Of a stretch of DNA of 64,000 nucleotides, positions 1 to 27,890 are shown one piece after another; position 1 is the first letter of the stretch, and the number at the start of each line of letters is the position of its first letter. Where the stretch lies: the NCBI GenBank assembly GCA_040255465.1, contig JBDZVA010000003.1, positions 621,174 through 685,173 on the forward strand, read 5' to 3'. The notes beneath the pieces were generated by a model that saw nothing but the letters and a program-made list of their open reading frames with translations, ran no database searches and was not told the origin of the DNA. The DNA comes from Planctomycetaceae bacterium (GTDB taxonomy: Bacteria > Planctomycetota > Phycisphaerae > Phycisphaerales > UBA5793). The translations under genes and the position numbers were made by a program.

Positions 1-441
1 TTGGACGCTCTTGATCTCCTGCAGACCGGAGTCGAGGACGGGGCCGACGGCTTCAAACTCGTTGAGGCCGTGCCGCGTGGCCAGCGTCGGGCCGGCATCC
101 ATCGCCAACGGCGGCGGCCAGGGCTTGGGATTGCCCTTCGCATCGGCCCACGCGCTTTGCGGGCTGACCCAGGAGAACATGCCGCCGTAGTAGGTGTATT
201 CATCGCTCGGGGCGGCGGGCTCATCGAGATCCTTCACCCACAGCAGGTTGTACCTGCCGCGCGGCCCGAACCGGATGAGTCGATCGTGCGTGGTGTCATA
301 CTCCGCGACGAGTCCAGAACCGATGATCCGCTGGTGCAACCGCGGCTTGTAGGGGCCATAGCACCCTGCCACACAAAGAGCCAGCAGACCCGCCACGGCG
401 AGTCTCGATAGGTCGCGCCACGAACTTGAAGACCGGTTCAC
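1..441 (-). CDS. Putative lipoprotein (C-terminus lies beyond window start)
   Basis: Minus-strand frame is open from the window edge up to GTG at 441-439, with GGGAGGAG 5 nt upstream. N-terminus VNRSSSSWRDLSRLAVAGLLALCVAGC has a signal peptide plus lipobox. Missing from the ORF track because it runs off the window. The overlapping + ORF 1..411 is an Arg/Gly-rich shadow. Confidence 0.5.
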   Translation of the reverse strand, partial: MNRSSSSWRDLSRLAVAGLLALCVAGCYGPYKPRLHQRIIGSGLVAEYDTTHDRLIRFGPRGRYNLLWVKDLDEPAAPSDEYTYYGGMFSWVSPQSAWADAKGNPKPWPPPLAMDAGPTLATRHGLNEFEAVGPVLDSGLQEIKSVQ

Positions 442-545
442 GCTGACTCCTCCCGATGGTCGCCCGGGTTCCGGCGCAGCGGCCCGTCGGCCGGGGCTGC
501 ACCTGCGGGTCAGTTTAGCGCGGCGAGACGGCGATCGAAACCGGG

Positions 546-905
546 TCATTCGGCATCACCTGCCGGAGCCTTGGCTTCTTCGGGATCCAGCGAAGGGGCG
601 CGACCCTCGTCCACGTCGGCGTCGGGAGAATCAGCGGCCCGACCCGAGATCGCGTCGATCCGTTCGCGGAGATCGCCCACGTAGGAGATGCGGATGCCGA
701 AGTTCTCGGTGATCTTGACCGCCGAGCCGACGCCGATGGCAACGTTGTTGACCAGCAGCTCGAGTTCCTCATCCGCGTTCTTGGCCATCTCGATGATCAT
801 GCCGGGCACCCACTGGACGACCTCATCCACGTGCATGGCCCGCTCGGCGATGCGAACGATCAGCGGGACCTCGAGTTTGAGTATGGACCTGATATCGGAC
901 TTCAT
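546..905 (-). CDS. fliN: Flagellar motor switch protein FliN (SpoA domain)
   Basis: 119 aa. FliN/SpoA-type sequence LKLEVPLIVRIAERAMHVDEVVQWVPGMIIEM...LELLVNNVAIGVGSAVKITENFGIRI. GAGGAAAG lies upstream of the ATG at 905. Confidence 0.85.
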   Translation of the reverse strand: MKSDIRSILKLEVPLIVRIAERAMHVDEVVQWVPGMIIEMAKNADEELELLVNNVAIGVGSAVKITENFGIRISYVGDLRERIDAISGRAADSPDADVDEGRAPSLDPEEAKAPAGDAE

Positions 906-953
906 CGTCTTTCCTCTATCGGATAAGTCGGGGCGGGAGTCGAAGAAAAGGTG

Positions 954-1030
954 GGGGCAGTTGGGGCAGGTGAGGGGGTGTCGGGGTGAAGGGGTGAAGG
1001 GGTGATGGGGTGAAGGGGTGATGGGGTGAT
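954..1030 (+). repeat. G-tract array: 7 tandem octamers GGGGTGAW (975-1030) preceded by three more G4-5 runs
   Basis: Direct reading gives ggggtgtc ggggtgaa ggggtgaa ggggtgat ggggtgaa ggggtgat ggggtgat. It fits the G4-N4-G4-N4 quadruplex pattern and sits 70 nt upstream of the fliN start, on the opposite strand. Confidence 0.9.
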
Positions 1031-1600
1031 GTCCTTCGGCGGGGACTCAGGATCTGCGAGGGTGATTGGGGGTACCAGACTGACGCGCGAGCGAAGAGTT
1101 TGAGTTCGGAGAGGCGTTCGTCCTCGCTGGCGCTTCGGTCTGGTTGAGTCGTCCATGACGATGCGGGTTGTCGGCGATTGAAAAGCATGTCTACCTATGG
1201 GGATTCGCGTGCGCGGGCGTGCGCGGCGGGGCTGGATGGCGCTGCAGGAGACGGGGTGGCGAGGATCGAGTCGCGCGAGGTCGAGCGACTTTTTTCGCGG
1301 GCGGCGCAGCGCCAGGCGCGATTGCGAAAAATGTGCAACGCAAAATGCGTGCCAACACGGAGATGCACCATGTCGGGAACTTTTCATGCGCGCCGGAGCG
1401 CTCCTGTGCGCGATTTTTGAGCGCGGGCGCGCGCTGCGGCGCGCGTTTGTGTAAATGAGCGCCTCTGTGCGGGCCGAATCAGGAATTTTCGCCGATTTTC
1501 ATTTTTCTGAGGGGGGTGATTTCGAGTTTTGCTCAACTTTTTTGCGTTTTCGAGAAAGCCGCGCACGGGATGCGATTGAGGTGGTGCGCTTGCGCGTGAG

Positions 1601-1632
1601 GGGGTGAATGGGTGACGAGGTGAAGGGGAGTG
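1601..1632 (+). repeat. Degenerate second copy of the GGGGTGAW octamer array
   Basis: ggggtgaa tgggtgac gaggtgaa ggggagtg, in the same orientation as the 975-1030 array. The two arrays bracket ~570 bp with no convincing ORF. Confidence 0.7.
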
Positions 1633-1649
1633 GTGTCGCGCGGGCCGCG

Positions 1650-2435
1650 TCAGGGTGTCACGCGTGGCAAGATCGCCGCGCCGCATTCGGGGCAGGTGCC
1701 GGTGGTGCTGGCTCGGAGATCGTAGTTGCAGTTGGGGCAGTGGCCGGCGCGGCGGCGGAGGTGGCGGCGCGTTGCTCGGAGCAACCGGAAGCACACCACC
1801 AGCATCGACAGCGCTGCCGCATAGAGCAGCGTGTTGCTGATGGCGCCGTGCCAGTGGATCCTGAGCGGGATGACGCGTGGCGTGATCCATGGGCCAGGTT
1901 GGGTATTGGCGAGCACGGCGCCATCATGCACGTCAAACCCGCCGGAGACGTTGCGCCACCGGGCGACGTAGGAGGCGCTGGTCATCGGCCAGCCACAGCC
2001 CACCTCGACAAACCAATCCCAGAGATAGATGGTCGGGTAGCAGTTCGGATCTCGATTCGCCGCGAGGCGCGTGAAGCGCGACCATGCGGGCGGCTCGCCT
2101 GCGCCGTCGACGAGTTCAAACTCATCCTCCCAGACGACCGTGTTCCAGTCGATCGGCGGCGGCGCCGCCAGGGTTCGAGGGCCGACCGGCGCGGCTGAAT
2201 ACGCGCCGAAGAGGACCTCGCGGCCGGGGGACGGGTACCTGGCCAATTGGAGACGGGCGGACCACCGGCCTTGAGATCCCTGGAGGTTCCAGCCGGTGCC
2301 ATTGCTGTAGGGGTACGTCCCCACCAGGCCGAATCCCGCGGCCACGACGTACTGAGCGAAGGCGCCGAGCAGGAGGCAGCCGATGAGTTGTTTGACGAGT
2401 CGGCCGAGCGCGGAGGATGGGCGGGTGCGCGGCAT
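1650..2435 (-). CDS. Membrane protein with C-terminal double-CxxC zinc ribbon (TM / Arg-rich / ZnR family)
   Basis: 261 aa. N-terminal TM (LIGCLLLGAFAQYVVAAGFGLV), central non-hydrophobic domain, second TM (LLYAAALSMLVVCF), then RLLRATRRHLRRRAGHCPNCNYDLRASTTGTCPECG. Confidence 0.6.
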   Translation of the reverse strand: MPRTRPSSALGRLVKQLIGCLLLGAFAQYVVAAGFGLVGTYPYSNGTGWNLQGSQGRWSARLQLARYPSPGREVLFGAYSAAPVGPRTLAAPPPIDWNTVVWEDEFELVDGAGEPPAWSRFTRLAANRDPNCYPTIYLWDWFVEVGCGWPMTSASYVARWRNVSGGFDVHDGAVLANTQPGPWITPRVIPLRIHWHGAISNTLLYAAALSMLVVCFRLLRATRRHLRRRAGHCPNCNYDLRASTTGTCPECGAAILPRVTP

Positions 2436-2444
2436 CGGGGGATG

Positions 2445-2531
2445 TTACGTCGTTGTGTTTGGACTGATCGCCGCGCCGCATTCGGGGCAGGTGCCGGTGG
2501 CTCGGGGGTCGTGGTTGATGCGTTTCTCGCG
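2445..2531 (-). pseudogene. Remnant of a zinc-ribbon family gene (distal half of the ribbon only)
   Basis: Frame ends ...INHDPRATGTCPECGAAISPNTTT*. Positions 2466-2500 (35 nt) are identical to 1671-1705 in the intact neighbour. No TM or N-terminal part is present; the upstream frame is low-complexity. Confidence 0.4.
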
Positions 2532-2611
2532 GGCCTGGATCACAGCCTGTCTCGGCGTGCACGCTACTTGCTCACTTGCACTCATAACGCAATGCGTAGG
2601 ATTGAAGTGGA

Positions 2612-3607
2612 ATGAATGGTGCCCAGGCGATTCTGCTTTTCGCGATTCTGGCTTGGTGCATCTACTTTGGTATTCTCGGCTATGCGATTTGTGCCTTGTG
2701 GAGGCGCAGATGCCGATTGCGCCAACGTCAGTGCATAGGTTGCGCCTATGACCTAGAGGCTCAAATCGATTCCCCTGTCTTACGATGCCCTGAGTGTGGA
2801 GCCGTACAGCCGGGACGGATGGAATGCGTGCTGCTGCAAAGGCGGATGAGGATTCTGGCCGTGTTGACCGCAGCGTCAACGATCGTCGCGATAGCCTTGG
2901 TCGCGCGAGACTGGGCGTATTCGGGCGGCCCGAGCCTCGCGGACTTGCATTCTCGGTCGGCGACAGGGTCCGGCCGGCGGGCAGCCGCAATGCCGCGGGG
3001 AGCTTCGCTCGCGATCGATCAGATTGACACATTGTGGCTGAGTCGCTGGGAGTGGATCCACTTCGACTCACAACGTCGGTATCCCTCTGACGTGGCGCCA
3101 ACGGGGCAGGGAAACTTCGACTGGGACTCTATTCGCACGGATATCATGGCAGAGGAGCAAGATGTGCGCGTTCGGTTCCAGAGCGACCGAACTTACGCCA
3201 TGGAGTTTCTTCGGGAATACCTGTTGCCGTGCATTCAAGTTGGCGAGGCGCTCCGACTGAAAGACGGGGGCATCGCGATCAACCTGTTCATAATCCCGCC
3301 GGCCACCATAAATGCCGGGTTTGAAGTCCATCTGGTCAAGGTGTCTCATCTCGCGCATACGGTTTTTGTGTCTGATGACTCAACGCCCACGTGCGCGGTC
3401 ACAGGGGTAGCGGACGCCGAACGCACCACCACTGGGGCATACGTTGATCGTCCTGCGGAACTGACAGTTGTTCTTGATTCGCTGTCGTGGGGATCCGACT
3501 CCCAGTACGAGGTGAAGTGCGAGTGGGAGGCCTGGATCGTGCTCGAAGGAGCGCGCCTGGGTCCTTTGCACTGTGAGACTTTGCGTGTCATAAGTCTCAG
3601 CAAGTAG
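2612..3607 (+). CDS. Membrane protein of the TM / Arg-rich / zinc-ribbon family (ZnR near N-terminus)
   Basis: 331 aa. TM (AILLFAILAWCIYFGILGYAICAL), then WRRRCRLRQRQCIGCAYDLEAQIDSPVLRCPECG, a second TM (ILAVLTAASTIVAIALV), then a ~230-aa domain. GC is visibly lower than the surroundings (30/60 and 36/60 in two lines I counted), with rare codons such as tta and ata. Confidence 0.55.
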   Translation: MNGAQAILLFAILAWCIYFGILGYAICALWRRRCRLRQRQCIGCAYDLEAQIDSPVLRCPECGAVQPGRMECVLLQRRMRILAVLTAASTIVAIALVARDWAYSGGPSLADLHSRSATGSGRRAAAMPRGASLAIDQIDTLWLSRWEWIHFDSQRRYPSDVAPTGQGNFDWDSIRTDIMAEEQDVRVRFQSDRTYAMEFLREYLLPCIQVGEALRLKDGGIAINLFIIPPATINAGFEVHLVKVSHLAHTVFVSDDSTPTCAVTGVADAERTTTGAYVDRPAELTVVLDSLSWGSDSQYEVKCEWEAWIVLEGARLGPLHCETLRVISLSK

Positions 3608-3608
3608 C

Positions 3609-3746
3609 CGGGTGCCGTGGTCTAGAGGGCCGGCGTGCGACCGGAAGGCCACGCGGGCGCGCGGCGGGTGGGCTGTTCACTTTGAGAGTCAATCGCGCGA
3701 ACGCGTGGCCTTCTCTCTCCGAGCTTCGGTCAGACCACGGCACCCG
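3609..3746. other. Nested inverted-repeat element (15-bp outer stem, 12-bp inner stem)
   Basis: Outer stem cgggtgccgtggtct (3609-3623) pairs with agaccacggcacccg (3732-3746). Inner stem gaaggccacgcg (3644-3655) pairs with cgcgtggccttc (3702-3713). Small CCGG...CCGG and CCGA...TCGG hairpins lie between them. It starts 2 nt after the stop of the 2612..3607 gene. Confidence 0.6.
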
Positions 3747-3816
3747 AACCCACTTCCGCGCCGCAATCGGGGCAGGCGCCGGTGGTGGTGGCACGGAGGT
3801 CGTAGTCGCGCGGACT
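3730..3816 (-). pseudogene. Second remnant of a zinc-ribbon family gene
   Basis: Frame ends ...SPRDYDLRATTTGACPDCGAEVGSGAVV*. Positions 3756-3810 resemble 1674-1730 with a few mismatches. It abuts the REP-like repeats and has no upstream coding partner. Confidence 0.4.
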
Positions 3817-3876
3817 CTGCGACGCGTGCGTCGCCGCTAGTCTGTTGAGATTCTGCGACGCATGCGTCGCCGCTAA
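3817..3876 (+). repeat. Composite REP-like element: two palindromic units separated by 12 nt
   Basis: ctgcgacgcgtgcgtcgccgctag (3817-3840), spacer tctgttgagatt, then ctgcgacgcatgcgtcgccgctaa (3853-3876). The core GCGACGCATGCGTCGC is a perfect 16-nt palindrome. Confidence 0.85.
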
Positions 3877-3910
3877 AATTTGGTGGGTTGTTGCTGCTTT
3901 GGAGGCGACT

Positions 3911-5071
3911 GTGAATCGACACTTCGATGTCATTGTCATCGGCGTGGGCAGTATGGGGGCGGCGGCGTGTTGGGAACTGCTGCGGCGCGAGCCTTCGCTG
4001 CGCGTGCTTGGGGTGGAGCAGTTTGACATTCCCAATGCGATGGGGAGTCATCACGGGCATTGCCGGGCGTTTCGCACTGCTTACTTCGAGCATCCTGACT
4101 ATGTCGCGCTGCTGCAGCGTTCGCTGGATCTGTGGCGCGAGATCGAAGCGGAGAGCGGCACGGCGCTGCTGCACCTGACCGGTGGGTTGTACCTGGGGCG
4201 GCCGGACTCGGCGCTGGTGCGCGATTCGATCGGCGCGGCGGAGTTGCACGGGCTGGGGCATGCGATCGTGCAGCGCGATGAACTGGCAGCGCGGTATCCG
4301 CAGTTTCGCGTCGGCGCCGATTGGATCGGATTCTTCGAGGAGCAGGCGGGGTATGTGCTGGCCGAGCAGACCGTGGCGGCGTATGCGCAGGCGGCGCGGA
4401 AGCGCGGGGCCGAACTGCACGAGCGCGAGGCGGTGCGGTCGTGGCGGGCGGGGCCCTCGAGCGTGACGGTAACGACGGATCGGGCGACGTATGAGGCGGA
4501 TCAACTCATCATCGCGGCCGGGGCGTGGGCGGGGCGCGCGATCGCGGATCTGGGCGTGGAGTTGAGCGTGACGCGGCAGGTGGTCGGGTGGTTTGAGCCG
4601 GGCGCGGCGGAGCTGTTCGGCGCGGATCGGTTTCCGATGTGGGGGATCGAGTCGGCGGCGGACGGGCCGGGGATCTGGTACGGCTTTCCGTTGATGGCGG
4701 AGAGCCCGGGTTTGAAGATCGGGCACCACTGGCCGGGCGAGGCGTGCGATGTGGAGTCGGTTGATCGCGAGGTGCGGCGTGAAGATGAGGATGTGCTGCG
4801 CAGCGCGATGCGGCGGTTTGTGCCGAATGGGGCCGGCGCGATGGTGGCGGCGCAGACGTGTTTGTACGCGAACAGTCCGGACGGGCATTTCATCGTGGAT
4901 CGGCATCCAAATCCGGCGCGGCATGATCGCGTGACGATTGCATGCGGCTTCAGTGGGCACGGGTTCAAGTTTGTGCCGGTGATCGGAAGGGCGCTGGCGG
5001 AGCTGGCGATTGATGGGGTGTCGAGCGAGGCGATCGGGTTTCTGGGGCTGGGGCGGTTGGGGTTGAAGTAA
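3911..5071 (+). CDS. FAD-dependent amine oxidase, monomeric sarcosine / N-methyltryptophan oxidase-like
   Basis: Dinucleotide-binding motif FDVIVIGVGSMGAAACWELL at the N-terminus and ACGFSGHGFKFVPVIG near the C-terminus, typical of the MSOX/SolA family. Start set at GTG 3911, 5 nt after GGAGG, in frame with ORF 3845..5071. Confidence 0.8.
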   Translation: MNRHFDVIVIGVGSMGAAACWELLRREPSLRVLGVEQFDIPNAMGSHHGHCRAFRTAYFEHPDYVALLQRSLDLWREIEAESGTALLHLTGGLYLGRPDSALVRDSIGAAELHGLGHAIVQRDELAARYPQFRVGADWIGFFEEQAGYVLAEQTVAAYAQAARKRGAELHEREAVRSWRAGPSSVTVTTDRATYEADQLIIAAGAWAGRAIADLGVELSVTRQVVGWFEPGAAELFGADRFPMWGIESAADGPGIWYGFPLMAESPGLKIGHHWPGEACDVESVDREVRREDEDVLRSAMRRFVPNGAGAMVAAQTCLYANSPDGHFIVDRHPNPARHDRVTIACGFSGHGFKFVPVIGRALAELAIDGVSSEAIGFLGLGRLGLK

Positions 5072-5189
5072 GAGGTGCGCTGCGCGGGCTGAGCGGAACT
5101 GGATTCCGGCCTTCGCCGGAATGACGGAGGACGGGGAGTGCGGCGTGTGGTGTTGAGTTGCGAGGCATGCGTTGCTGCTGAACGCATGT

Positions 5190-5270
5190 GGCGACGCATG
5201 TGTCGCCGCTAAGCTCGTGAGACTCTGCGACGCATGTGTCGCCGCTAAACGTGTTTGGCGTCGCCGCTAA
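5190..5270 (+). repeat. Composite REP-like element (two full units plus one half unit)
   Basis: ggcgacgcatgtgtcgccgctaa (5190-5212), spacer gctcgtgagact, ctgcgacgcatgtgtcgccgctaa (5225-5248), and half unit ggcgtcgccgctaa (5257-5270). Orientation and 12-nt spacing match 3817-3876. A separate 8-bp hairpin attccggc/gccggaat lies at 5103-5122. Confidence 0.85.
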
Positions 5271-5298
5271 TCGTCCGGTGCGTTGATACACTCTGCCG

Positions 5299-7317
5299 GT
5301 GTCGCTGCTTAATCCATTCAGTGCGTTGATCCTGGCGGGCGTGGTCGTTCCGGCCCTGCTGCTGCTGTATTTTCTGAAACTGCGGCGCAAGGAGGTGTGG
5401 ATCGGTTCGACGATGCTGTGGAGCAAGGTCGTCGAGGACCTGCAGGCGAACACGCCGTTCCAGCGGTTGCGGGCGTCGTGGCTGCTGTTTCTGCAGTTGT
5501 TTCTGCTGCTCGCCCTGCTGCTGGCGCTGGCGCGGCCGATCTTCGGGCTCAAGCAGGGTGAGGGCGGGCAGCGACTCATCCTGCTCGTTGATGTGAGCGC
5601 TTCGATGGGAGCGGAAGAAGCGAAGACGGATGGAGAAGATCCGAAGACGCAAGCGGTGACGCGGCTGGCGCGTGCGAAGGCAGCGGCGGACGAGATGCTC
5701 GATCGCCTTCGACGCGGCGGCGATGAGGTGCAGGTGATGGTGGTCGCGTTCGCCACGCGGGCGCGGATTGCGCAGACGTTCACTTCCGACCTGCGGTTTG
5801 CCAGGGCGGCGATTGATTCGCTCGACGTGCTCGAAGAGCCCGGGTTGCTGGGGCCGGCGCTGCGGCTGGCGGAGACGTACGCCGGGCCCGAGCAATCGGG
5901 CAACGGGGAAGCGCCAGTGCGGACGGTGCTGCTGAGCGACGGACGGTTTGGTGATGATCAGACGCCGAGTTATGCGGGGGGTGAAGTTGAGTTTGTGTCG
6001 GTGAGTCAGCGAAGCGATGGCGCCGACGGGGGCGCGGCTGATGTCGACAATGTGGGCATTACGTTCCTGGCAGCACGGCGGGACATTGTCGATGTGTCGC
6101 AGGTTGATGTGCTCTGCGGGCTGGCGAGCACGGCGGCGGATCTGAAGACGGTGCGCGTCGAGTTTGCGATTGACGGAAACGTGCTCGAATCGCAGGCGGT
6201 GTCATTGGAGGCGCGCGAGGCGGGACAGCCGAGTGAAGGACTGGCGCGATTGCGGTTTGTGAACCTGGCTGGCGGCGTGCTGCGGGTGACGATCGCACGG
6301 GGTGATGCGCTGGCGACGGACAACACGGTGGGACTGTTGCTCTCGCCGCCGCGCAAGGCGACGCTGCTGGTGGTGTATCCGAGCGGCGAGAGTGCTGCGG
6401 ACGAGTACCTGATGAGCGTGGTGAATGAGTTGCCGCTGTATGAGGTGGAGACGTGGCCGGCGGACCGGTTCGAGACGCTGCTCAAGAGTGGTGAGGCGCT
6501 GCAGTCGAGCGATGGGCAGGCGTTCAGTGCTATCATCTTTGATCGAGTGTCGCCGAGCGCGGTGCCTGATGCGCCGACGCTGTCATTTGGCGCGCGGCCA
6601 CCGGTGCCGGGCCTGAGTCTGACGCCATCGGATGTTCCAAATCCGAGCCGGCGGATCCTGAGCTGGAGTCGGCAGAATCCGATCATGGCGAGCGTGGGTC
6701 TGGACACGATTGCGGTCGCTGACGAGCGGCGGCTGTCGCTGCCGGATAATGACAGCGAGGCGCTGGCGATCGCCGAGGGCGGGCCGATCATCGGCGTGGT
6801 CGAGCCGCGCCGGGGGCGGCGGCACATCTTGGTGAGCTTTGATCTGCGACAGAGCAACTGGCCGCTGCACGTGAGCTTTGCCATCTTCATGCAGAACGCG
6901 GTGGACTATCTCACGCAGCGCGGCAGCGCGGATGCCGGGCAGATGATCCAGACCGGCCAGACGATGACGCTGCGCGCATCGCCGGGCGCGACGAGTGTGA
7001 CACTGACGGGGCCGGATGAGCGGACGATGCCGGTGCGGGAAGATGGGTCGGTGACCATCGGGCCGCTGGATCGCGTGGGGGTGTATGACGCAGAGGGGCT
7101 GCCGGCGGAGAACGTGCCGATCATTGCGAACCTGCTCAGCGAGGTGGAGTCGAATCTGCTGCCGGTTGAATCGGTGCGGATCGGGCACGAAGCGGCGGCG
7201 GCGCAGACGGTGGATCGATCGACGCCGCGCGAATTGTGGCCGTGGCTGGTGGCGCTGGCGCTGGGCGTGCTTGGCGTGGAGTGGGTGGTTTTTCTTTTGC
7301 GGGCGCGGTGGCGGTGA
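5299..7317 (+). CDS. BatA-like membrane protein with von Willebrand factor A domain
   Basis: 672 aa. N-terminal double-TM segment LILAGVVVPALLLLYFLKLRRKEV...LFLQLFLLLALLLALARP resembles the aerotolerance BatA N-terminal domain. MIDAS-like LILLVDVSASMG. C-terminal TM WPWLVALALGVLGVEWVVFLL. Confidence 0.7.
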   Translation: MSLLNPFSALILAGVVVPALLLLYFLKLRRKEVWIGSTMLWSKVVEDLQANTPFQRLRASWLLFLQLFLLLALLLALARPIFGLKQGEGGQRLILLVDVSASMGAEEAKTDGEDPKTQAVTRLARAKAAADEMLDRLRRGGDEVQVMVVAFATRARIAQTFTSDLRFARAAIDSLDVLEEPGLLGPALRLAETYAGPEQSGNGEAPVRTVLLSDGRFGDDQTPSYAGGEVEFVSVSQRSDGADGGAADVDNVGITFLAARRDIVDVSQVDVLCGLASTAADLKTVRVEFAIDGNVLESQAVSLEAREAGQPSEGLARLRFVNLAGGVLRVTIARGDALATDNTVGLLLSPPRKATLLVVYPSGESAADEYLMSVVNELPLYEVETWPADRFETLLKSGEALQSSDGQAFSAIIFDRVSPSAVPDAPTLSFGARPPVPGLSLTPSDVPNPSRRILSWSRQNPIMASVGLDTIAVADERRLSLPDNDSEALAIAEGGPIIGVVEPRRGRRHILVSFDLRQSNWPLHVSFAIFMQNAVDYLTQRGSADAGQMIQTGQTMTLRASPGATSVTLTGPDERTMPVREDGSVTIGPLDRVGVYDAEGLPAENVPIIANLLSEVESNLLPVESVRIGHEAAAAQTVDRSTPRELWPWLVALALGVLGVEWVVFLLRARWR

Positions 7318-7350
7318 TTCGCGACGCTTCGCAGAGCCTGCGCATCGCGG

Positions 7351-8160
7351 CTAAACACGCCCCAGGCGCTGCTGCCACTCGCGGAGGCGCGCGTGGTCGG
7401 TGAGATCGAAGTGAAGCGGGGTGATGGTGATGTTGCCGGCGAGCATGGCTTGCACGTCGCTGCCGGTGGTGGTGTGCTGGAAGGCCATGCCGTCGCCGAC
7501 GCACCAGTAGTAGATCTGACCATTGGGACTGACGCGGCGTTCGTAGCGGTCGGTCATGCCGGCGAGGTTCATCGGGACGATCTTGATCGGCGGCAACTGG
7601 CCATCGCTGGTGGTCGAGGGGATGTTGATGTTGAGCACTGAACCGGGCTGGAGCGGGCCGTGCTCGAGGCAGCGCTGTATTGCCTCGCGCGCGTGGCGGG
7701 CGGCGACATCCCAGCGGACCTTTTCAAACGCGCGGCGGTTGAGTTCGCTCTCGACATAGAGGCTCACGGCGATTGAGGGCAGGCCGAGGAATGCGGCTTC
7801 GATCGCGGCCCCCACTGTTCCCGAGTAGATCACGTGGATGCCGACGTTGCAGCCCATGTTCATGCCCGAGACGACGAGGTCGGGGCGCGGATGCTCCGGA
7901 TGATGTTCGGGCCAGACGTTTTCGATGGCGAGTTTGACGCAGTCGGCGGGCCGGCCGTCGATGGCGAAGCCGGTCATGCGTTCGTTGATGCGCATCTGGC
8001 GGGCCATGAGCGGGACGTTAAAGGTCACGCTGTGGCTGGTGGCGGACTGCACTTCGAGCGGGGCGACGGTGAAGACTTCGCCGAGGTTGAGCAGTTCGCT
8101 GTGGAGGGCTTCGATACCCGGGGCGCGAAGGCCGTCGTCGTTGGTGAGGAGAATGCGCAT
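7351..8160 (-). CDS. surE: 5'/3'-nucleotidase SurE
   Basis: 269 aa. N-terminus MRILLTNDDGLRAPGIEAL and the later GTVGAAIEAAFLGLPSIAVS are characteristic of SurE. Confidence 0.9.
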   Translation of the reverse strand: MRILLTNDDGLRAPGIEALHSELLNLGEVFTVAPLEVQSATSHSVTFNVPLMARQMRINERMTGFAIDGRPADCVKLAIENVWPEHHPEHPRPDLVVSGMNMGCNVGIHVIYSGTVGAAIEAAFLGLPSIAVSLYVESELNRRAFEKVRWDVAARHAREAIQRCLEHGPLQPGSVLNINIPSTTSDGQLPPIKIVPMNLAGMTDRYERRVSPNGQIYYWCVGDGMAFQHTTTGSDVQAMLAGNITITPLHFDLTDHARLREWQQRLGRV

Positions 8161-18248: not shown

Positions 18249-19835
18249 ATGCCGCAGGTTCGAGGGATTGTGTGGTTGGTCGTTGTGATGCTGGTTGCCT
18301 GCACAACCACGGCGCGCGGCGATGGCATGTATTTCCCCTCCAAACTCGCCGCTCGTGATCCGTCGATCCCCCATCAAACGGCGCTCATCTCCTATCGCAA
18401 TGGCGTGGAGACGATGGTTGTGCAGTCGACGGTGAACGCCGACGGCGATGAAGTCGGCTGGGTGTTGCCGCTTCCTGCGCCGCCTACGTCGATCGAGACT
18501 GCGACGCCGGGAACACTGGTGACGCTCGAGCAACTGGTGCAGCCGCGAGTGATCGAGGCGAGAGAGTTGACCGACTCGCTGGCGTTTGCGATCTTCACGC
18601 TGTTGGCGCTCGCATTCATGTTCGCCGTCAGTTGCGTGTTGCACGGCCGGCGTTCTGCCACAGTGAAGGTGGCTGGATACGTTGCAGCGCTTCCGGTGAT
18701 GCTCGTGCTGGCAGCAGCGGTACTCCTTCCCAGCCTCGGTCGGGCGCGGCAACAAGCGGCCGCGGAAGGTTCGACCCTTGAACACGGCGTGACGATGCTC
18801 ATGCGGGCAGACGTCGGCTCATACGACGTGACGGTGATCGCCGCTGAATCCGGCGAAGACGTGCGTATCTGGCTGGATGCAAACAATTTCACGTGCAGCG
18901 CCAAGGCGGGAAGCGCGATCGATGCCTACGTCGCAGAGGGCTGGTGTTTTGCCGCCGCGAGGATTCGCTGGTCAGCCGACGGCGAGCTGTCGCCGCATCC
19001 GTTGAAGGTCACTTTCCCGGCAGATGAGGTGGTGTATCCAATGAGGCTCACCGGCGCGAGCGCGACCGAGCCCCTGGCGCTCGATCTATTCGTGGTGGGA
19101 GATCTGATGGCGGACTCGCGCGATCTCGATCTGTGGCGATGCGAGGCACTCCAACTCGATCCCAAGGATCCGCATACACCTGCGGACGAACCGCCCATCT
19201 TCAGCGGCGGATCATCGCGTCTTCAAATTGGTCACCCGGGAATCACTTCGCTGATGTGGGACGGCGCGACGCTGACCCATCTACGCGGCTCACTCACTCC
19301 CGCACAAATGACGAGTGATGACGTGCACTTCATATGGGGCACGCCACAGCCCTATCGGCGAACCGTCTACTCGGAGTCTGCAGCGACGAAACACGGTGCG
19401 ATGGTTTCCATGTACCTGGCGGCGCTGACGCTTTTCATCGCGTCGCTGGCGGCGCTGCCATCGCGCTGGCCACTGAGGCAAACGCGCAAGAGAGTGCTGT
19501 GGCCGGGACTGGCAATCGCCATCCTCGCCACGCCCGGGTTCGTTGCCTTTGCTCCGTCGGCCAGAACAGTCGTCGATGAGCATTTGTTCGATCGTCGCGA
19601 CGCACTAACGCGGATGCAATTGAAGCTGTGGGACATGCAATTCGATGCATCGTCGGCCTCCGCTTCCGAGAAATTCATCACCGATCTGCGCGCCGGTTTG
19701 CCCGACCATCTCGTCTGGGGCGATGTGCCCTGCGGCGTGGTCATCGACGAGACCGAGACCGGCTGGGACGTTTCCGTCTATGACACCAATGCCCTGCCGA
19801 TGAGGGTGCATCTGGAGCGCCTTAAGGACAAATAG
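18249..19835 (+). CDS. Hypothetical exported/membrane protein, DUF2330-like (tentative)
   Basis: 528 aa. Signal peptide IVWLVVVMLVACTTTARG, then GMYFP...IPHQTALISYRNGVETMVVQSTVNADGDEVGWVLPLPAPP, which resembles the DUF2330 N-terminal pattern. Internal TM helices are present. Confidence 0.55.
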   Translation: MPQVRGIVWLVVVMLVACTTTARGDGMYFPSKLAARDPSIPHQTALISYRNGVETMVVQSTVNADGDEVGWVLPLPAPPTSIETATPGTLVTLEQLVQPRVIEARELTDSLAFAIFTLLALAFMFAVSCVLHGRRSATVKVAGYVAALPVMLVLAAAVLLPSLGRARQQAAAEGSTLEHGVTMLMRADVGSYDVTVIAAESGEDVRIWLDANNFTCSAKAGSAIDAYVAEGWCFAAARIRWSADGELSPHPLKVTFPADEVVYPMRLTGASATEPLALDLFVVGDLMADSRDLDLWRCEALQLDPKDPHTPADEPPIFSGGSSRLQIGHPGITSLMWDGATLTHLRGSLTPAQMTSDDVHFIWGTPQPYRRTVYSESAATKHGAMVSMYLAALTLFIASLAALPSRWPLRQTRKRVLWPGLAIAILATPGFVAFAPSARTVVDEHLFDRRDALTRMQLKLWDMQFDASSASASEKFITDLRAGLPDHLVWGDVPCGVVIDETETGWDVSVYDTNALPMRVHLERLKDK

Positions 19836-19933: not shown

Positions 19934-21607
19934 ATGGGGCGATCATTCAGGTGCGTGCCGGCTGTGTTGGTGGTCGTTGCGATGATGGCGTCCGACCCGG
20001 CTGCGGCTCAGTACCGCAGCAATCCCGTCGCCGTCCCGGTCGACGCGCAGCCGGCGACGCTGGTGCAGTCGGCCATCGTGCGGCACGACGAAGTTGAGTC
20101 GGCGGAGATTCGGGAAGTCGTGTCTGTTTCGCCCGACGGTCATCGCGCCCTGCTCATTGCCGGCGACGAAGGCCTGGATGTCTGGGCGGCGGCGTTTTCG
20201 TTCTGGCCCGAAGCGGCGGTGCTCATACTGATCATCATCGGCGCCTTGCTCGTGCGGCGGACGAGCCGGCTGCGGCGACTGCCGCGAGGCGTTCCCTGCT
20301 GCGCGGTTTGCGGCTACCTCATTCACGACATGACGCCGCGCTGTCCGGAATGCGGCATCGCGCTCACGGCGCGAGCGCTGCGCTACGGCGGCCCGGCGCG
20401 TGTGCATGTGGCGCTGACGGTTCTCATCTTCGTGCTCGTGGTCGGGGCTTACCCTCTCTTTCAGCGCGCCCTGCCGCGCGAATCCGAATGGGTCGCCGAA
20501 CACGCGCGATGGTATTCGCCGGCGCTGGCTGAGAAGTTGCGCGACCATTTTCCGGAGTGGAGCGGGAACTACATCCGCTGGCCCGAATCCATTGTCGAGT
20601 TCGACGTGGAAACGGGCAAGGTGTCGCGAACGCTGCACACCGCGCAGTGGGATCTGAGCGGCGCCATGGCGGCGCCGGGCAGGGGCGGACGACTGGCGAT
20701 GGTTTCGGATGGCGAGCGGGTCATCGTGCTGGACACCGAGAGTCAGCCTTGGCCGAAGGTTGTCTACCGTGCGGCAGAGTCGACGCGACCTGAACTGATC
20801 GGATTCTCGGCTGACGCCCGACGGCTGTACTACTACGAGCTGGAGTCCGGCATTCAAAGTGTGTGCTCGCTCGATCTGGCGACGTCGAAGGTCACTCGGC
20901 TGAAAGCCATACCCGCCAGCGGCGGCGGGTGCTTTGGTCCGTCGGGGCCCTATGTGAAGGTCGACCCGAGGCTCGATCTGGCGATCGTCCAGGACTACGG
21001 CGCCATGAGTCGCGGTGAAGCGCCACTGCGTCTGCTCGATCTGAAGAGCGGGCAATGGGCAGAGGCGCTGGATCGCACGGGTGATTGCTGGCGAGCGCGG
21101 TTCACATCTGACGGTTCGGCGGCGATCGCGATCGACTGGCAGGCGGAACTTCCCGTCCCCACTGCTCCGGGCGCGCGCAACCTGCTCGTCTACTGGCCGC
21201 TGGATGATCCGCAGTCTCCGGTGCATGTGATCGTGCCGTTCGACGGCCTCGACGAACTGGTGGCTATCGATGCCGCCGGGCCGCGCGCGTGGCGGCTTGT
21301 CGCCAGCCACACGCTGGAGAGCGGCGAGTGCCTGCTGCTGGCGCGGTACGTTGAAGTTGGTGAAGACGGTTCGCTGGAGGTCGCGGATCATCATCGGCTG
21401 GTTTCGTGGCCGGCCGAGTGCAGCGCGAGTTCGTGGTCGGATGCTGAATTGGAGTTGCGCGGCGCGGTGCTGGAGTGCCGCAGGACCGATCGAGATGGTG
21501 TTGCGGCGGCGCTGCTCGTGTATGACCTCGACCTGCCGCCGCTTGATGCGGGGCGGCGCGCGCGACAATCGCCGGACGCACCCGCCACGGCGATTGCCTC
21601 AAACTGA
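19934..21607 (+). CDS. Membrane protein: TM / Arg-rich / zinc ribbon / TM / large C-terminal (beta-propeller-like) domain
   Basis: 557 aa. AAVLILIIIGALLVRRTSRLRRLPRGVPCCAVCGYLIHDMTPRCPECG, then TM VHVALTVLIFVLVVGAYPLF, then ~370 aa of strand-rich sequence. Confidence 0.6.
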   Translation: MGRSFRCVPAVLVVVAMMASDPAAAQYRSNPVAVPVDAQPATLVQSAIVRHDEVESAEIREVVSVSPDGHRALLIAGDEGLDVWAAAFSFWPEAAVLILIIIGALLVRRTSRLRRLPRGVPCCAVCGYLIHDMTPRCPECGIALTARALRYGGPARVHVALTVLIFVLVVGAYPLFQRALPRESEWVAEHARWYSPALAEKLRDHFPEWSGNYIRWPESIVEFDVETGKVSRTLHTAQWDLSGAMAAPGRGGRLAMVSDGERVIVLDTESQPWPKVVYRAAESTRPELIGFSADARRLYYYELESGIQSVCSLDLATSKVTRLKAIPASGGGCFGPSGPYVKVDPRLDLAIVQDYGAMSRGEAPLRLLDLKSGQWAEALDRTGDCWRARFTSDGSAAIAIDWQAELPVPTAPGARNLLVYWPLDDPQSPVHVIVPFDGLDELVAIDAAGPRAWRLVASHTLESGECLLLARYVEVGEDGSLEVADHHRLVSWPAECSASSWSDAELELRGAVLECRRTDRDGVAAALLVYDLDLPPLDAGRRARQSPDAPATAIASN

Positions 21608-21614
21608 CGCCCCA

Positions 21615-21641
21615 CCTCATGCACCCCTTGGTTTTTGGCCG
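21615..21641 (+). repeat. 27-bp direct repeat, left copy
   Basis: cctcatgcaccccttggtttttggccg, identical to 22394-22420. It starts 8 nt after the stop of the 19934..21607 gene. Confidence 0.95.
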
Positions 21642-21710
21642 GTTGCCGGAATGCCTACGCGGGGGACAGCCGATATCCTTTCGGAGAGGCTGTGGCGATC
21701 GGAGCAGGCA

Positions 21711-21950
21711 ATGAACTGGCGCGACCATATCGATCGAAATCCTGATGTGCTGGGTGGCAAACCCAAGATCCGGGGGACGCGCATCAGCGTCGAGTTGATC
21801 GTGGGCCGACTCGGAGAAGGTTGGACCGTCGAACAATTACTCGAGGCCTATCCGCATATCAACGAGACGCAGATTCGAGCCTGCCTGGCCTGCGCGGCCG
21901 CAGCGCTCGCGACGGATGACGTGCTCGACATCCCGCTTTCCGCGGCTTGA
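21711..21950 (+). CDS. DUF433-family antitoxin-like protein
   Basis: MNWRDHIDRNPDVLGGKPKIRGTRISVELIVGRLGEGWTVEQLLEAYPHI... is the typical DUF433 pattern. GGAGCAGG lies upstream. The stop overlaps the next start (ATGA). Confidence 0.75.
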   Translation: MNWRDHIDRNPDVLGGKPKIRGTRISVELIVGRLGEGWTVEQLLEAYPHINETQIRACLACAAAALATDDVLDIPLSAA

Positions 21951-22318
21951 GCATGCGAATTCTCGCTGACGAAAACGTTGATCGGCCGATCGTGGCGTGG
22001 CTTCGATCACAGGGGCACGACGTGATCGAAACAGCGACGACGACCCCCGGCGATGCTGACGAAGCGATCATTGCCCGAAGTCGCGAAGAAGGTCGAATCC
22101 TGCTGACATTCGATCGTGACATCGGCCGCATTCTCCAATCAGATCGTCGACCGCATCCTGGCGTGGTGTTTCTGCGACTCGGTGGAACCGGCGAGGAACT
22201 CTGGGATACGTTCAAGCGTGTCTGGCCACGCGTCGAACCAATCGCCACCAACCACTTTGTCACTGTTCGCAATCGGCAGGTCCGAAGCCGTCCCCTCCCG
22301 ATGCAATTGGAAACGTGA
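21947..22318 (+). CDS. DUF5615 / Mut7-C PIN-like toxin-like protein
   Basis: MRILADENVDRPIVAWLRSQGHDV...DEAIIARSREEGRILLTFDRD is typical of the DUF5615 partner of DUF433. It has a 4-nt overlap with the upstream gene. Confidence 0.75.
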   Translation: MSMRILADENVDRPIVAWLRSQGHDVIETATTTPGDADEAIIARSREEGRILLTFDRDIGRILQSDRRPHPGVVFLRLGGTGEELWDTFKRVWPRVEPIATNHFVTVRNRQVRSRPLPMQLET

Positions 22319-24068: not shown

Positions 24069-24605
24069 GTGGAGCGCATGCGGCCCGGCCGGCTGGCATT
24101 GATCTACCGATCAGGTGCACTGTCACTCATGGCGGGCATCGTGTTCGGCTACTTGACGTTCTTCGTATCGCTCTTCGGCACATCCGTGCTGTGGTTTCTG
24201 TACGGTCCATCGAAACCCCCGGCGGCTGCATCAACACCAACACTGGCACTGACTTCGCTCCTCCTCGGTTTTGGCGTGTTCGGCGTGTTCCTGTGGCGGT
24301 GCCGCCGCCAGCGGCAGTTGCTTTTCCGCGAACTCTGGCCGCATCGGCTGGCAGTCTGTCCGACCTGTATCTATCCCCTCATGCGCCACAGGGAGCGCTG
24401 CAGCGAGTGCGGCCGGGAGATCAAGTGCTGCGAAGCGCAACAGTTCTGGGTTGGCGTGTTTTGGATGCCGATCGACGTCATGTGGCCGGAAGGGTGGGTC
24501 ATTCGAAGGGCAGCACAGCGCCGGCGCAATCGCGGCTGGTCGAGACGACACTTCGGCCGTTGGTTCAAGTGGTATCGCCCGCGATCCCTGCTGCCGCTGC
24601 GCTGA
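24069..24605 (+). CDS. Membrane protein of the TM / Arg-rich / zinc-ribbon family
   Basis: 178 aa. Two TM helices, then WRCRRQRQLLFRELWPHRLAVCPTCIYPLMRHRERCSECG, followed by an Arg/Trp-rich tail. Confidence 0.55.
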   Translation: MERMRPGRLALIYRSGALSLMAGIVFGYLTFFVSLFGTSVLWFLYGPSKPPAAASTPTLALTSLLLGFGVFGVFLWRCRRQRQLLFRELWPHRLAVCPTCIYPLMRHRERCSECGREIKCCEAQQFWVGVFWMPIDVMWPEGWVIRRAAQRRRNRGWSRRHFGRWFKWYRPRSLLPLR

Positions 24606-27866: not shown

Positions 27867-27890
27867 CGCGACGCATGCGTCGCCGCTCAA
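27867..27890 (+). repeat. Single REP-like palindromic unit
   Basis: cgcgacgcatgcgtcgccgctcaa has the same core as the 3817-3876 and 5190-5270 elements. A separate 7-bp inverted repeat gagatcg aga cgatctc lies at 27848-27864. Confidence 0.8.

Follow-up and report, generated by a model that had tools for sequence, protein, structure and literature searches.

Tandem arrays of membrane proteins with a predicted cytoplasmic zinc-ribbon tail in Planctomycetota, and the eroded end of one array

The window analysed here is a stretch of 64 kb with a G+C content of 63%, taken from contig JBDZVA010000003.1 of a Planctomycetaceae bacterium. Its positions 1650-3816 hold two intact genes, A and B, and two 3'-terminal gene remnants, all of which carry the whole or the end of a short motif in which a small zinc ribbon follows a membrane helix and an arginine-rich linker. 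Two more genes with the motif, C and D, lie further along the window. What lies at 1650-3816 is one eroded end of a tandem array, and the genes of that array belong to an uncurated and very large family of Planctomycetota membrane proteins, here called family A. The elements concerned are:

1650..2435, minus strand: gene A, an open reading frame (ORF) of 261 amino acids (aa) ending in ...RRHLRRRAGHCPNCNYDLRASTTGTCPECGAAILPRVTP and a stop codon
2445-2531, minus strand: remnant 1, ..HDPRATGTCPECGAAISPNTTT and stop, of which INHDPRATGTCPECGAAISPNTTT and stop are the last ~24 codons of a gene
2612..3607, plus strand: gene B, an ORF of 331 aa that has a transmembrane (TM) helix, RRRCRLRQRQ and CIGCAYDLEAQIDSPVLRCPECG at its start
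3730-3816, minus strand: remnant 2, SPRDYDLRATTTGACPDCGAEVGSGAVV and stop, the last 28 codons of a family-A gene
19934..21607, plus strand: gene C, 557 aa, with the motif at 20300-20356
24069..24605, plus strand: gene D, 178 aa, with the motif at 24357-24413

An earlier note on this DNA had described these ORFs, remnants and motifs, and each of them is present in the translations and motif counts. The full motif C..C.[YF].L…C[PS]ECG occurs four times in the window, against a mean of 0.000 and a maximum of 0 in 300 first-order Markov simulations; the second zinc knuckle alone, the five-residue half motif C[PSA][EDNQ]CG, occurs six times against 0.5 expected in the same simulations. Beside the four full motifs stand the two remnants, both on the minus strand, which retain only the second knuckle and the tail. 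With counts so far above chance, the motif is a real recurrent element behind a membrane helix and an arginine cluster, as proposed, in genes A, B and C.

Gene A is the sole full-length family-A match in a six-frame profile scan of the whole window. Its C-terminus reads TM-LRATRRHLRRRAGH-CPNCNYDLRASTTGTCPECG-AAILPRVTP before the stop codon, with the following parts:

1788-1844, minus strand: second transmembrane helix (TM2) of gene A
1740-1781, minus strand: arginine-rich linker LRATRRHLRRRAGH
1680..1739, minus strand: zinc ribbon CPNCNYDLRASTTGTCPECG

The protein is laid out as TM1 (about residues 9-38), a periplasmic beta domain (47-190), TM2 with the arginine linker helix (195-230) and the ribbon (233-252). 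An AlphaFold2 (AF2) model of it, with a predicted local distance difference test (pLDDT) of 86 and a predicted template modelling score (pTM) of 0.79, is confident; it contains TM1 (helix 9-36), the beta domain and the ribbon, and makes TM2 and the arginine linker a single continuous helix with the ribbon next to it. A word-index search returned 31 homologues of gene A, all unnamed and all from Phycisphaerales genomes, from which alignment A1 was built. No sequence in A1 departs from the four cysteines of the ribbon or from its Y, L, P, E and G.

Family A is an uncurated group that we define through alignment A1 and a search of protein representatives. Its members have an N-terminal helix, a GWP motif, the segment PLRxxWPGxxxNTxxYA, a second helix, an arginine linker and a C-terminal ribbon. 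Gene A matches the family profile over positions 1-264 (E 2e-93) and has every family motif; genes B, C and D and both remnants fall outside the definition, their matches being restricted to 17-56 positions at the C-terminal end of the profile. Among 1.84 billion representatives, the A1 profile finds 53,340 clusters of 50% identity at E<=1e-3, 11,661 at E<=1e-10 and 416 at E<=1e-30. The proteins are usually 195-270 aa long. Their N-terminal helix is conserved (LLLGAxVNVAVAWGCA, also LLLGAxxNxxVAW), the variable periplasmic region carries a (D/E)xxGWP motif, and the segment LPLRPIWPGFxxNTxFYA runs into the second helix, after which comes the tail. A family-A protein is a membrane hairpin made of a helix, a fast-evolving periplasmic beta domain, a second helix and a predicted cytoplasmic tail. 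Two or three family-A units are fused in one polypeptide in 42 of the 150 best representatives, for example in P0040 (702 aa), P0033 (521 aa, L003 4407-5972) and about 40 others, and some of the fused units have no ribbon. The paralogues P0009 and P0027 lie on the window's own 877-kb contig and the homologue P0006 on another contig.

The tail has the consensus RRxΦRRRRG-CxxCGYDLRG-x5-CPECG, in which the ribbon comprises 20 residues with four cysteines. In a logo of 263 distinct units the linker shows R(-10) at 77%, R(-9) at 72%, L/I(-7), R(-6) at 84%, R/K from -5 to -3 and G(-2) at 79%, and the ribbon reads C-x-x-C-G-Y(96%)-D(78%)-L(90%)-R-G, five variable residues, then C-P(93%)-E(99%)-C-G. 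Three quarters (75%) of these ribbons are exactly 20 residues long. So sharp a pattern marks the tail as a well-defined domain, for which "Arg-rich" would be too loose a description.

Genes A, B, C and D have a module of about 35-55 residues in common and are otherwise unrelated. BLASTP aligns 21 residues of genes A and B, and hhalign of A1 covers only 41 columns of gene B (E 6e-8), 56 of gene C (E 7e-8) and 34 of gene D (E 4e-5). The three proteins are built as follows:

Gene B: TM1 (2621-2677), the RRRCRLRQRQ linker, ribbon (2732-2800), TM2 (2846-2902) and an extracytoplasmic domain of ~230 aa
Gene C: a signal or TM segment, ~80 aa, a TM helix (20198-20254), the RRTSRLRRLPRG linker, ribbon (20300-20356), a TM helix (20402-20458) and an ectodomain of ~380 aa
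Gene D: a small membrane protein downstream of two clpP genes, with the degenerate ribbon CPTCIYPLMRHRERCSECG (24357-24413)

Genes A, B and C carry the module in full, with the spacing of the four cysteines, the Y and L, the helix and the basic linker; the ribbon sits behind a membrane helix, and 5-6 of the 14 residues preceding it are Arg/Lys. Gene D has the ribbon, yet only two basic residues in the preceding 14, and CSECG replaces CPECG. Gene B is its own sole match among 5.8 billion proteins and has no match in the sister genome UBA5793. The single homologue of gene C is the syntenic P0169 in a sister genome (57% identity), and gene D has a syntenic orthologue in locus L058 (76% identity). 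The earlier note had treated A and B as one family of paralogues within 2.2 kb and C and D as further members. Neither grouping holds: A and B have some 21-41 residues in common and B is an orphan, and although C and D do contain the motif, both are separate lineage-restricted genes.

The same ribbon occurs in a cytoplasmic loop of a CstA carbon-starvation transporter (L024 3411-5621; Pfam E 1e-123), N-terminally in two Yip1-domain membrane proteins encoded side by side (L022 3421-4962 and 5034-6533), where a second CxxC...CxxC pair follows immediately behind it, and on several other multi-helix proteins at related loci. Because it is attached to unrelated scaffolds, a transporter loop among them, the tail behaves as an add-on tag and is, from its distribution, an independent and promiscuous module.

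A scan with the tail alignment, covering one genome per species (the source genome is not among the species representatives), identified 49 loci, nearly all in Phycisphaerae, Tepidisphaerales and other Planctomycetota. At related loci family-A genes stand in same-strand tandem arrays of 3-7 genes, and 3'-only remnants like those of the window recur at no fewer than seven other loci (>=7). The genes of the arrays end in one of two ways:

Type 1: ...CPECGAAITPRATT-TAG-GATCAnCTG-ATG, with 9-10 nt from the stop to the next start
Type 2: ...CPECGAQVGSGAVV-TGA, leading into a conserved hairpin of ~140 nt

Remnant 1 forms a type-1 junction ahead of gene A, its stop codon lying 9 nt before the ATG of gene A, the usual arrangement in an array. 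Remnant 2 is a type-2 end joined to a hairpin at 3609-3747.

The history of the locus can be read against Phycisphaerales bacterium UBA5793, in which neighbouring proteins are 83-99% identical to those of the window. Window positions 3815-5065 and 5227-7877 are 87-90% identical in nucleotides to UBA5793 locus L008, and 1012-1605 is 85.5% identical to L001 5752-6343. Where the window has remnant 2, an intact family-A gene of 233 aa occupies the syntenic site of L008, in a segment that extends from repeats resembling repetitive extragenic palindromes (REP-like) to the hairpin, beside a DAO gene. In the alignment the window lacks ~700 bp, beginning at the repeats and reaching as far as the TAC codon of the tail's YDL. 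At the counterpart of the gene A locus, L001 has a remnant and three intact genes (P0025, P0022 and P0004), followed by the block homologous to 1605-1012. Window positions 2322-2517, which span the start of gene A, the junction and remnant 1, are 79% identical to the P0022/P0004 junction (L001 4520-4319). Remnant 1 has a 3-nt deletion and substitutions in the YDL strand.

In any frame, the family profile matches remnant 1 only at positions 248-264 and remnant 2 only at positions 241-260, and no similarity to the family-A body is left beside the remnants in any frame. Two independent Logan metagenome assemblies of the same organism, L050 and L051, come from other sequencing runs and reproduce the window from 2471 onward with 0 and 2 mismatches, remnant 2 being identical in both. 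Both start at 2471, within a 35-nt repeat shared by remnant 1 and gene A, as expected for an assembly break at repeated DNA. Such tail cassettes fragment short-read assemblies, so that family copies may be under-counted in metagenome-assembled genomes. The alternative that the remnants are parts of real, frameshifted genes, which the earlier note had named as what would overturn its reading, is rejected by the profile matches, by the intact UBA5793 genes and by the two independent assemblies. On this comparative evidence both remnants are true truncated genes of family A. A 218-aa minus-strand ORF antisense to gene B (2445..3101) was also considered as a decayed family-A body and rejected: it has no GWP or helix motifs, its BLASTP alignment with P0027 (27% over 197 columns) is due to the final 24 residues, and hhalign covers 24 columns only.

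Gene B had been described as visibly lower in GC, and it is: 0.55-0.58 against 0.65-0.68 in its flanks, with a third-position GC (GC3) of 0.66 against 0.72-0.86 in native genes. It stands in the opposite orientation in place of the lost upstream member of the array, and is unchanged in the two Logan assemblies. Remnant 1 is what is left of a member lost by replacement, where gene B now lies, and remnant 2 of a member lost by a deletion of ~700 bp at REP-like repeats. The window retains one intact family-A gene, against three and a remnant at the UBA5793 counterpart. The locus has contracted rather than expanded; with this array shrunk and the deletion at remnant 2, the description of the family as locally expanding does not apply here.

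Codon usage sets the tail apart from the gene body. In a set of 21 paralogues taken from three genomes, the fraction of identical residues encoded by the same codon is 0.81-0.82 in the tail and 0.40-0.41 in the body, the latter being about saturation. In arrays of more distant genomes the corresponding values are 0.44-0.82 and 0.28-0.47, and between distant genomes the tail value is lower, at 0.38-0.64. High codon identity of the tail within arrays and lower values between distant genomes show that concerted evolution or gene conversion homogenises this DNA within lineages; tail and stop-to-ATG junction alike stay nearly identical among paralogues that are otherwise saturated. That synonymous sites of the tail are conserved across genomes was rejected as proof of selection on the DNA or RNA itself, UBA5793 being a close relative (dS, the synonymous divergence, measured at 0.2-0.6 for neighbours) and tail codon identity between distant genomes being only 0.38-0.64.

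Gene A and remnant 1 share 35 nt exactly (1671-1705 and 2466-2500), an identity already reported and read directly from the sequence. The same 35-mer is exact in UBA5793 (L001 5155-5189) and is found with <=2 mismatches at 12 sites in two other genomes. The identity exists because tail DNA is uniform across the family, and its presence in other genomes means that it is no proof of a recent local duplication. Of the earlier proposal that it implies recent duplication or gene conversion, the codon statistics bear out homogenisation, and the 35-mer in other genomes means that the identity is not in itself the mark of a recent local event.

Gene A and its positional counterpart P0004 are 38% identical in the ectodomain and 81% identical in the linker and ribbon. 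Their same-codon fraction is 0.75 at the N-terminus, 0.60 in the ectodomain (n=48) and 0.94 in the tail, to be compared with 0.70-0.86 for orthologue controls, 0.40 for the paralogue baseline and 0.55 for the syntenic orthologue of gene C. The ectodomain dS by the Nei-Gojobori method (NG86) is 1.5, which taken alone would favour a swapped body; the same-codon measure is the more robust. These values fit either very fast orthologous divergence of the gene A ectodomain or replacement of the body by that of a paralogue, and either may have occurred.

Gene ends that are near-identical around highly divergent bodies raise the question of a programmed variation system, in which recombination would take hold of the conserved 5' junction and the 3' cassette to swap ectodomain bodies between expressed and silent copies, the remnants being by-products or donors. 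Many remnants do begin near the YDL strand, where nucleotide conservation rises. However, the remnants hold no ectodomain information to donate, others break elsewhere (in the linker in L034 and L021), no recombinase is associated with the 49 loci, and the ectodomain value of 0.60 between gene A and its counterpart also fits plain fast divergence. We regard such swapping as very improbable.

Rates of evolution were compared between the window and a UBA5793-type genome at locus L058, with dN as the nonsynonymous divergence:

Both ClpP genes, amidase and kinase: 95-99% aa identity, dN 0.008-0.032, dN/dS 0.02-0.09
Gene C: 57% aa identity, dN 0.34, dN/dS 0.37
Gene D: 76% aa identity, dN 0.15, dN/dS 0.52

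The ribbon genes evolve 5-40x faster (dN) than their neighbours, and the fast turnover suspected earlier is borne out by this comparison. The likeness to variable surface or sensor families to which the earlier note pointed is a plausible reading. Rates of this order, with dN/dS of 0.37-0.52, would fit a conflict or recognition repertoire engaged in an arms race (immunity proteins, receptor decoys or self/non-self receptors), which would be compatible with a docking role of the tail. Tandem arrays of divergent paralogues, recurrent remnants, the orphan gene B with its atypical GC, and gene content that differs between genomes whose neighbouring proteins are 83-99% identical all point the same way. 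Against it, whole-gene dN/dS is below 1, searches of PADLOC and PHROGs are null, no toxin, nuclease or secretion genes recur beside the arrays at the 49 loci, and only five weak loci were found in 2.9 million viral contigs. A conflict repertoire is, in our judgement, distinctly unlikely.

Several other features lie around these genes:

3609..3747, no strand assigned: long hairpin of ~140 nt between the convergent gene B and remnant 2 (-91.6 kcal/mol, z -5.65)
3819..3877 and 5191-5249: pairs of REP-like 16-nt palindromes, GCGACGCRTGYGTCGC
27868-27883: a single copy of the same palindrome

The hairpin is present once in the window and has copies 86-90% identical in UBA5793 loci L002, L006 and L008. 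In relatives it lies directly 3' of type-2 family-A genes, whose final codons (..VGSGAVV and stop) fall within one hairpin arm. Its role may be that of a bidirectional terminator, or it may be a small mobile repeat. In UBA5793 the contig with L008 stops ~220 nt past the hairpin copy. The REP-like palindrome occurs at five sites in the window against 0.18 expected, with a spacing of 36 nt within pairs, and the pairs lie on both sides of the DAO-type oxidase gene (3845-5071). The pair at 3819-3877 abuts the edge of the deletion at remnant 2, and three copies lie upstream of the intact L008 gene.

On the other side of gene A, G-rich octamer tandem repeats, (GTGAAGGG)n at 962-1042 and 1596-1636, bracket a block of 590 nt (1012-1605). 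This block contains no conserved ORF and has no Rfam match, its mismatches (39/29/21) follow no clear codon periodicity, and it may be a non-coding RNA or a regulatory region between gene A and a FliN-like gene (546-905, minus strand). Synteny with L001 ends at ~1012, and 31 nt of the block (1117-1147) are 100% identical to two sites by array genes in KLAP200, L003. Rfam and tRNA scans of window positions 1-8000 gave no match. Near gene C, the interval to clpP is ~780 bp with extra ORFs (21947-22318 and 21270-21950) in the window and 128 bp in L058, a further case of an insertion or deletion next to a ribbon gene. Gene C is directly preceded by a gene for a predicted membrane or periplasmic protein of 528 aa (18249-19835); the matching stretch of L058 has different small genes (HNH, HTH).

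No database source names any member of family A. Genes A-D have no match above any cut-off in Pfam, NCBIfam, PADLOC or PHROGs; six typical family-A members have nothing above cut-off in Pfam or NCBIfam, and two of the six are also null in PADLOC. Even at E<=0.1 in PADLOC and E<=0.01 in PHROGs there is no match that would place the proteins in a known anti-phage or phage family. What does appear is sub-threshold similarity to generic zinc ribbons (13-19 bits against cut-offs of 25-30; E 0.001-0.02). The best values for gene A are 17.0 bits with DZR and 15.9 bits with Zn_Ribbon_1, and the six other members reach at most 19.3 bits, below the 25-27.3 bits required for DZR, Zn_Ribbon_1 or DZR_2. 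A sequence search of the PDB gave the zinc ribbon of PolD DP2 at E 0.01 as its best match and no relative at threshold, Foldseek against the PDB found no fold relative (best E 0.19), and literature text searches on the motif found no relevant paper. The claim that the motif belongs to no curated family and has no assigned function thus stands in all these sources.

Arginine-rich segments next to zinc knuckles are classic nucleic-acid binders, and the tail has 5-6 Arg in the 14 residues ahead of the ribbon. The weak top sequence matches in the PDB are also ribbons of nucleic-acid enzymes (PolD DP2, E 0.01). The tail might accordingly act as a membrane tether for DNA or RNA, or belong to a ToxR/CadC-like regulator. 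However, no significant similarity to DNA- or RNA-binding families was found in Pfam, NCBIfam or the PDB, the ribbon has just 20 residues, and sequence-specific regulation sits poorly with tens to hundreds of copies spread over unrelated transporters and scaffolds. We consider nucleic-acid binding improbable.

The tail is an uncurated variant of a known theme, zinc ribbons on membrane proteins. The Pfam models DZR (PF12773), DZR_2 (PF18912) and Zn_Ribbon_1 (PF13240) likewise describe short CxxC...CxxC ribbons by membrane helices with no defined function, but they lack the arginine linker and the GYDLRG/CPECG signature. Zinc-binding anti-sigma factors (ZAS) are recognised by an N-terminal HxxxCxxC anti-sigma domain and an adjoining gene for an extracytoplasmic function (ECF) sigma factor; genes A-D have no such match in Pfam or NCBIfam, and no neighbour recurs at the 49 loci. 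The closest likeness is to ZitP and GltJ/AgmX, which are also bitopic, with a small four-cysteine cytoplasmic ribbon and a periplasmic domain on the opposite side, and in which the ribbon is a protein-docking or switch module. The zinc ribbon (ZnR) of Caulobacter ZitP binds PopZ (PMC5182065), and that of Myxococcus GltJ binds its own linker and MglB (PMC11135422). In these single-copy genes the ribbon is N-terminal, about 40 residues long, of the MJ0042/Zn_ribbon_4-5 type, and followed by a linker and a single membrane helix, whereas that of family A has 20 residues, stands behind a helix and a fixed RRxΦRRRRG linker, lies mostly at the C-terminus (or in a loop) and is spread over tens of thousands of paralogous clusters. 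Genes A-D do not match Zn_ribbon_4/5 (MJ0042, ZitP/GltJ type); the only match, sub-threshold at 17.4 bits against 30.3, is in a Yip1 protein of L022.

Sorting signals such as PEP-CTERM, GlyGly-CTERM and LPXTG also combine a C-terminal motif, a membrane helix and an arginine-rich cluster, and come in large paralogous sets. They stop at the basic cluster, however, and are accompanied by a cleaved signal peptide and a dedicated sortase. In family A a predicted folded ribbon lies beyond the cluster (29-39 residues of ribbon and tail), and the N-terminal helix is retained and conserved family-wide. Unlike sorting signals, the module is also found N-terminally or in loops (B, C, CstA, Yip1). The arrays resemble bacterial surface-protein repertoires and Rhs or contact-dependent inhibition (CDI) loci in having a homogeneous constant gene end, a divergent remainder, tandem genes and truncated leftovers. 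They differ in that the constant part is a cytoplasmic tail with no secretion or delivery domain, in that the leftovers hold the constant part only, and in the absence of linked toxin/immunity pairs or recombinases at the 49 loci.

The ribbon is always on the predicted cytoplasmic side, adjacent to the membrane and behind a patterned arginine helix. With ZitP and GltJ as precedent, we tentatively favour, at somewhat less than an even chance, a role as a docking tag close to the membrane, constant where the periplasmic proteins that carry it are variable. The arginine-striped helix and the ribbon would form this tag at the inner face of the membrane and would bind a shared cytoplasmic partner or an anionic surface, variable periplasmic domains would be carried on the constant tail, and genes adjacent in an array would be expressed together, their products probably forming hetero-oligomers. 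Fusions of two or three units and the 9-10 nt gaps between stop and ATG suggest such co-expression and assembly. Since no gene recurs beside the arrays, any partner would be encoded elsewhere. Taken whole, with the identity of the array and module joined to this mechanism, the explanation is in our view probable, though far from certain.

Several observations weigh against the docking tag. No partner was identified, and no neighbouring gene is conserved across the 49 loci. A clade-specific loop, ATTTG, is common to family-A copies and not to B, C and D of the same genome, which favours gene conversion over co-evolution with one common partner. An AF2 model of the packing of units in a natural two-unit fusion reached only a pLDDT of 68 and a pTM of 0.57. 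The patterns of the 49-locus scan were narrow, so that its taxonomic range is a lower bound and the restriction to Planctomycetota only apparent. Finally, the invariant residues (the four cysteines, Y, L, P and G) are those needed for a minimal ribbon fold, and their conservation alone demands no binding partner.

This last point leads to a purely structural or topogenic tail, in which an arginine stop-transfer signal and a fast-folding zinc knot would stabilise small membrane proteins with no dedicated partner. The arginine cluster agrees with the positive-inside rule, the module is carried by many scaffolds with no relation to one another and also lies in loops, the ribbon is missing from some fused units, and the lack of a conserved partner gene is as this alternative would have it. 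It does not account for a linker whose pattern and spacing are fixed beyond the needs of topology (RRxΦRRRRG, Gly at -2 in 79%), nor for the Glu of CPECG, conserved at 99% although the search pattern permitted seven residues there. Most bacterial membrane proteins manage without such a knot, and a function particular to the lineage is suggested by the module's seeming confinement to a single phylum. We hold a purely structural tail to be unlikely.

Planctomycetota have unusual envelopes and many giant paralogous families without a known role. Family A is notable among them for its size, its sharp signature and its segment-restricted concerted evolution, and it is absent from Pfam and NCBIfam; a curated model would give a name to thousands of "hypothetical proteins". 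Compared between two close genomes, the locus itself is a clean case of concerted evolution confined to one gene segment, together with rapid turnover and gene loss associated with repeats. The constant tail offers a simple experimental handle and could reveal a cytoplasmic partner shared by many envelope proteins. More speculatively, and on balance rather doubtfully, the tail would be a Planctomycetota-specific cytoplasmic address tag that plugs many membrane proteins into one structure or regulator, with the arrays as diversifying hetero-oligomeric periplasmic receptors. If this were true, family-A receptors, transporters such as CstA and Yip1-like proteins would all be connected through a common tail held uniform by gene conversion, and the tail would mark a phylum-wide, previously unrecognised system that organises or controls the envelope.

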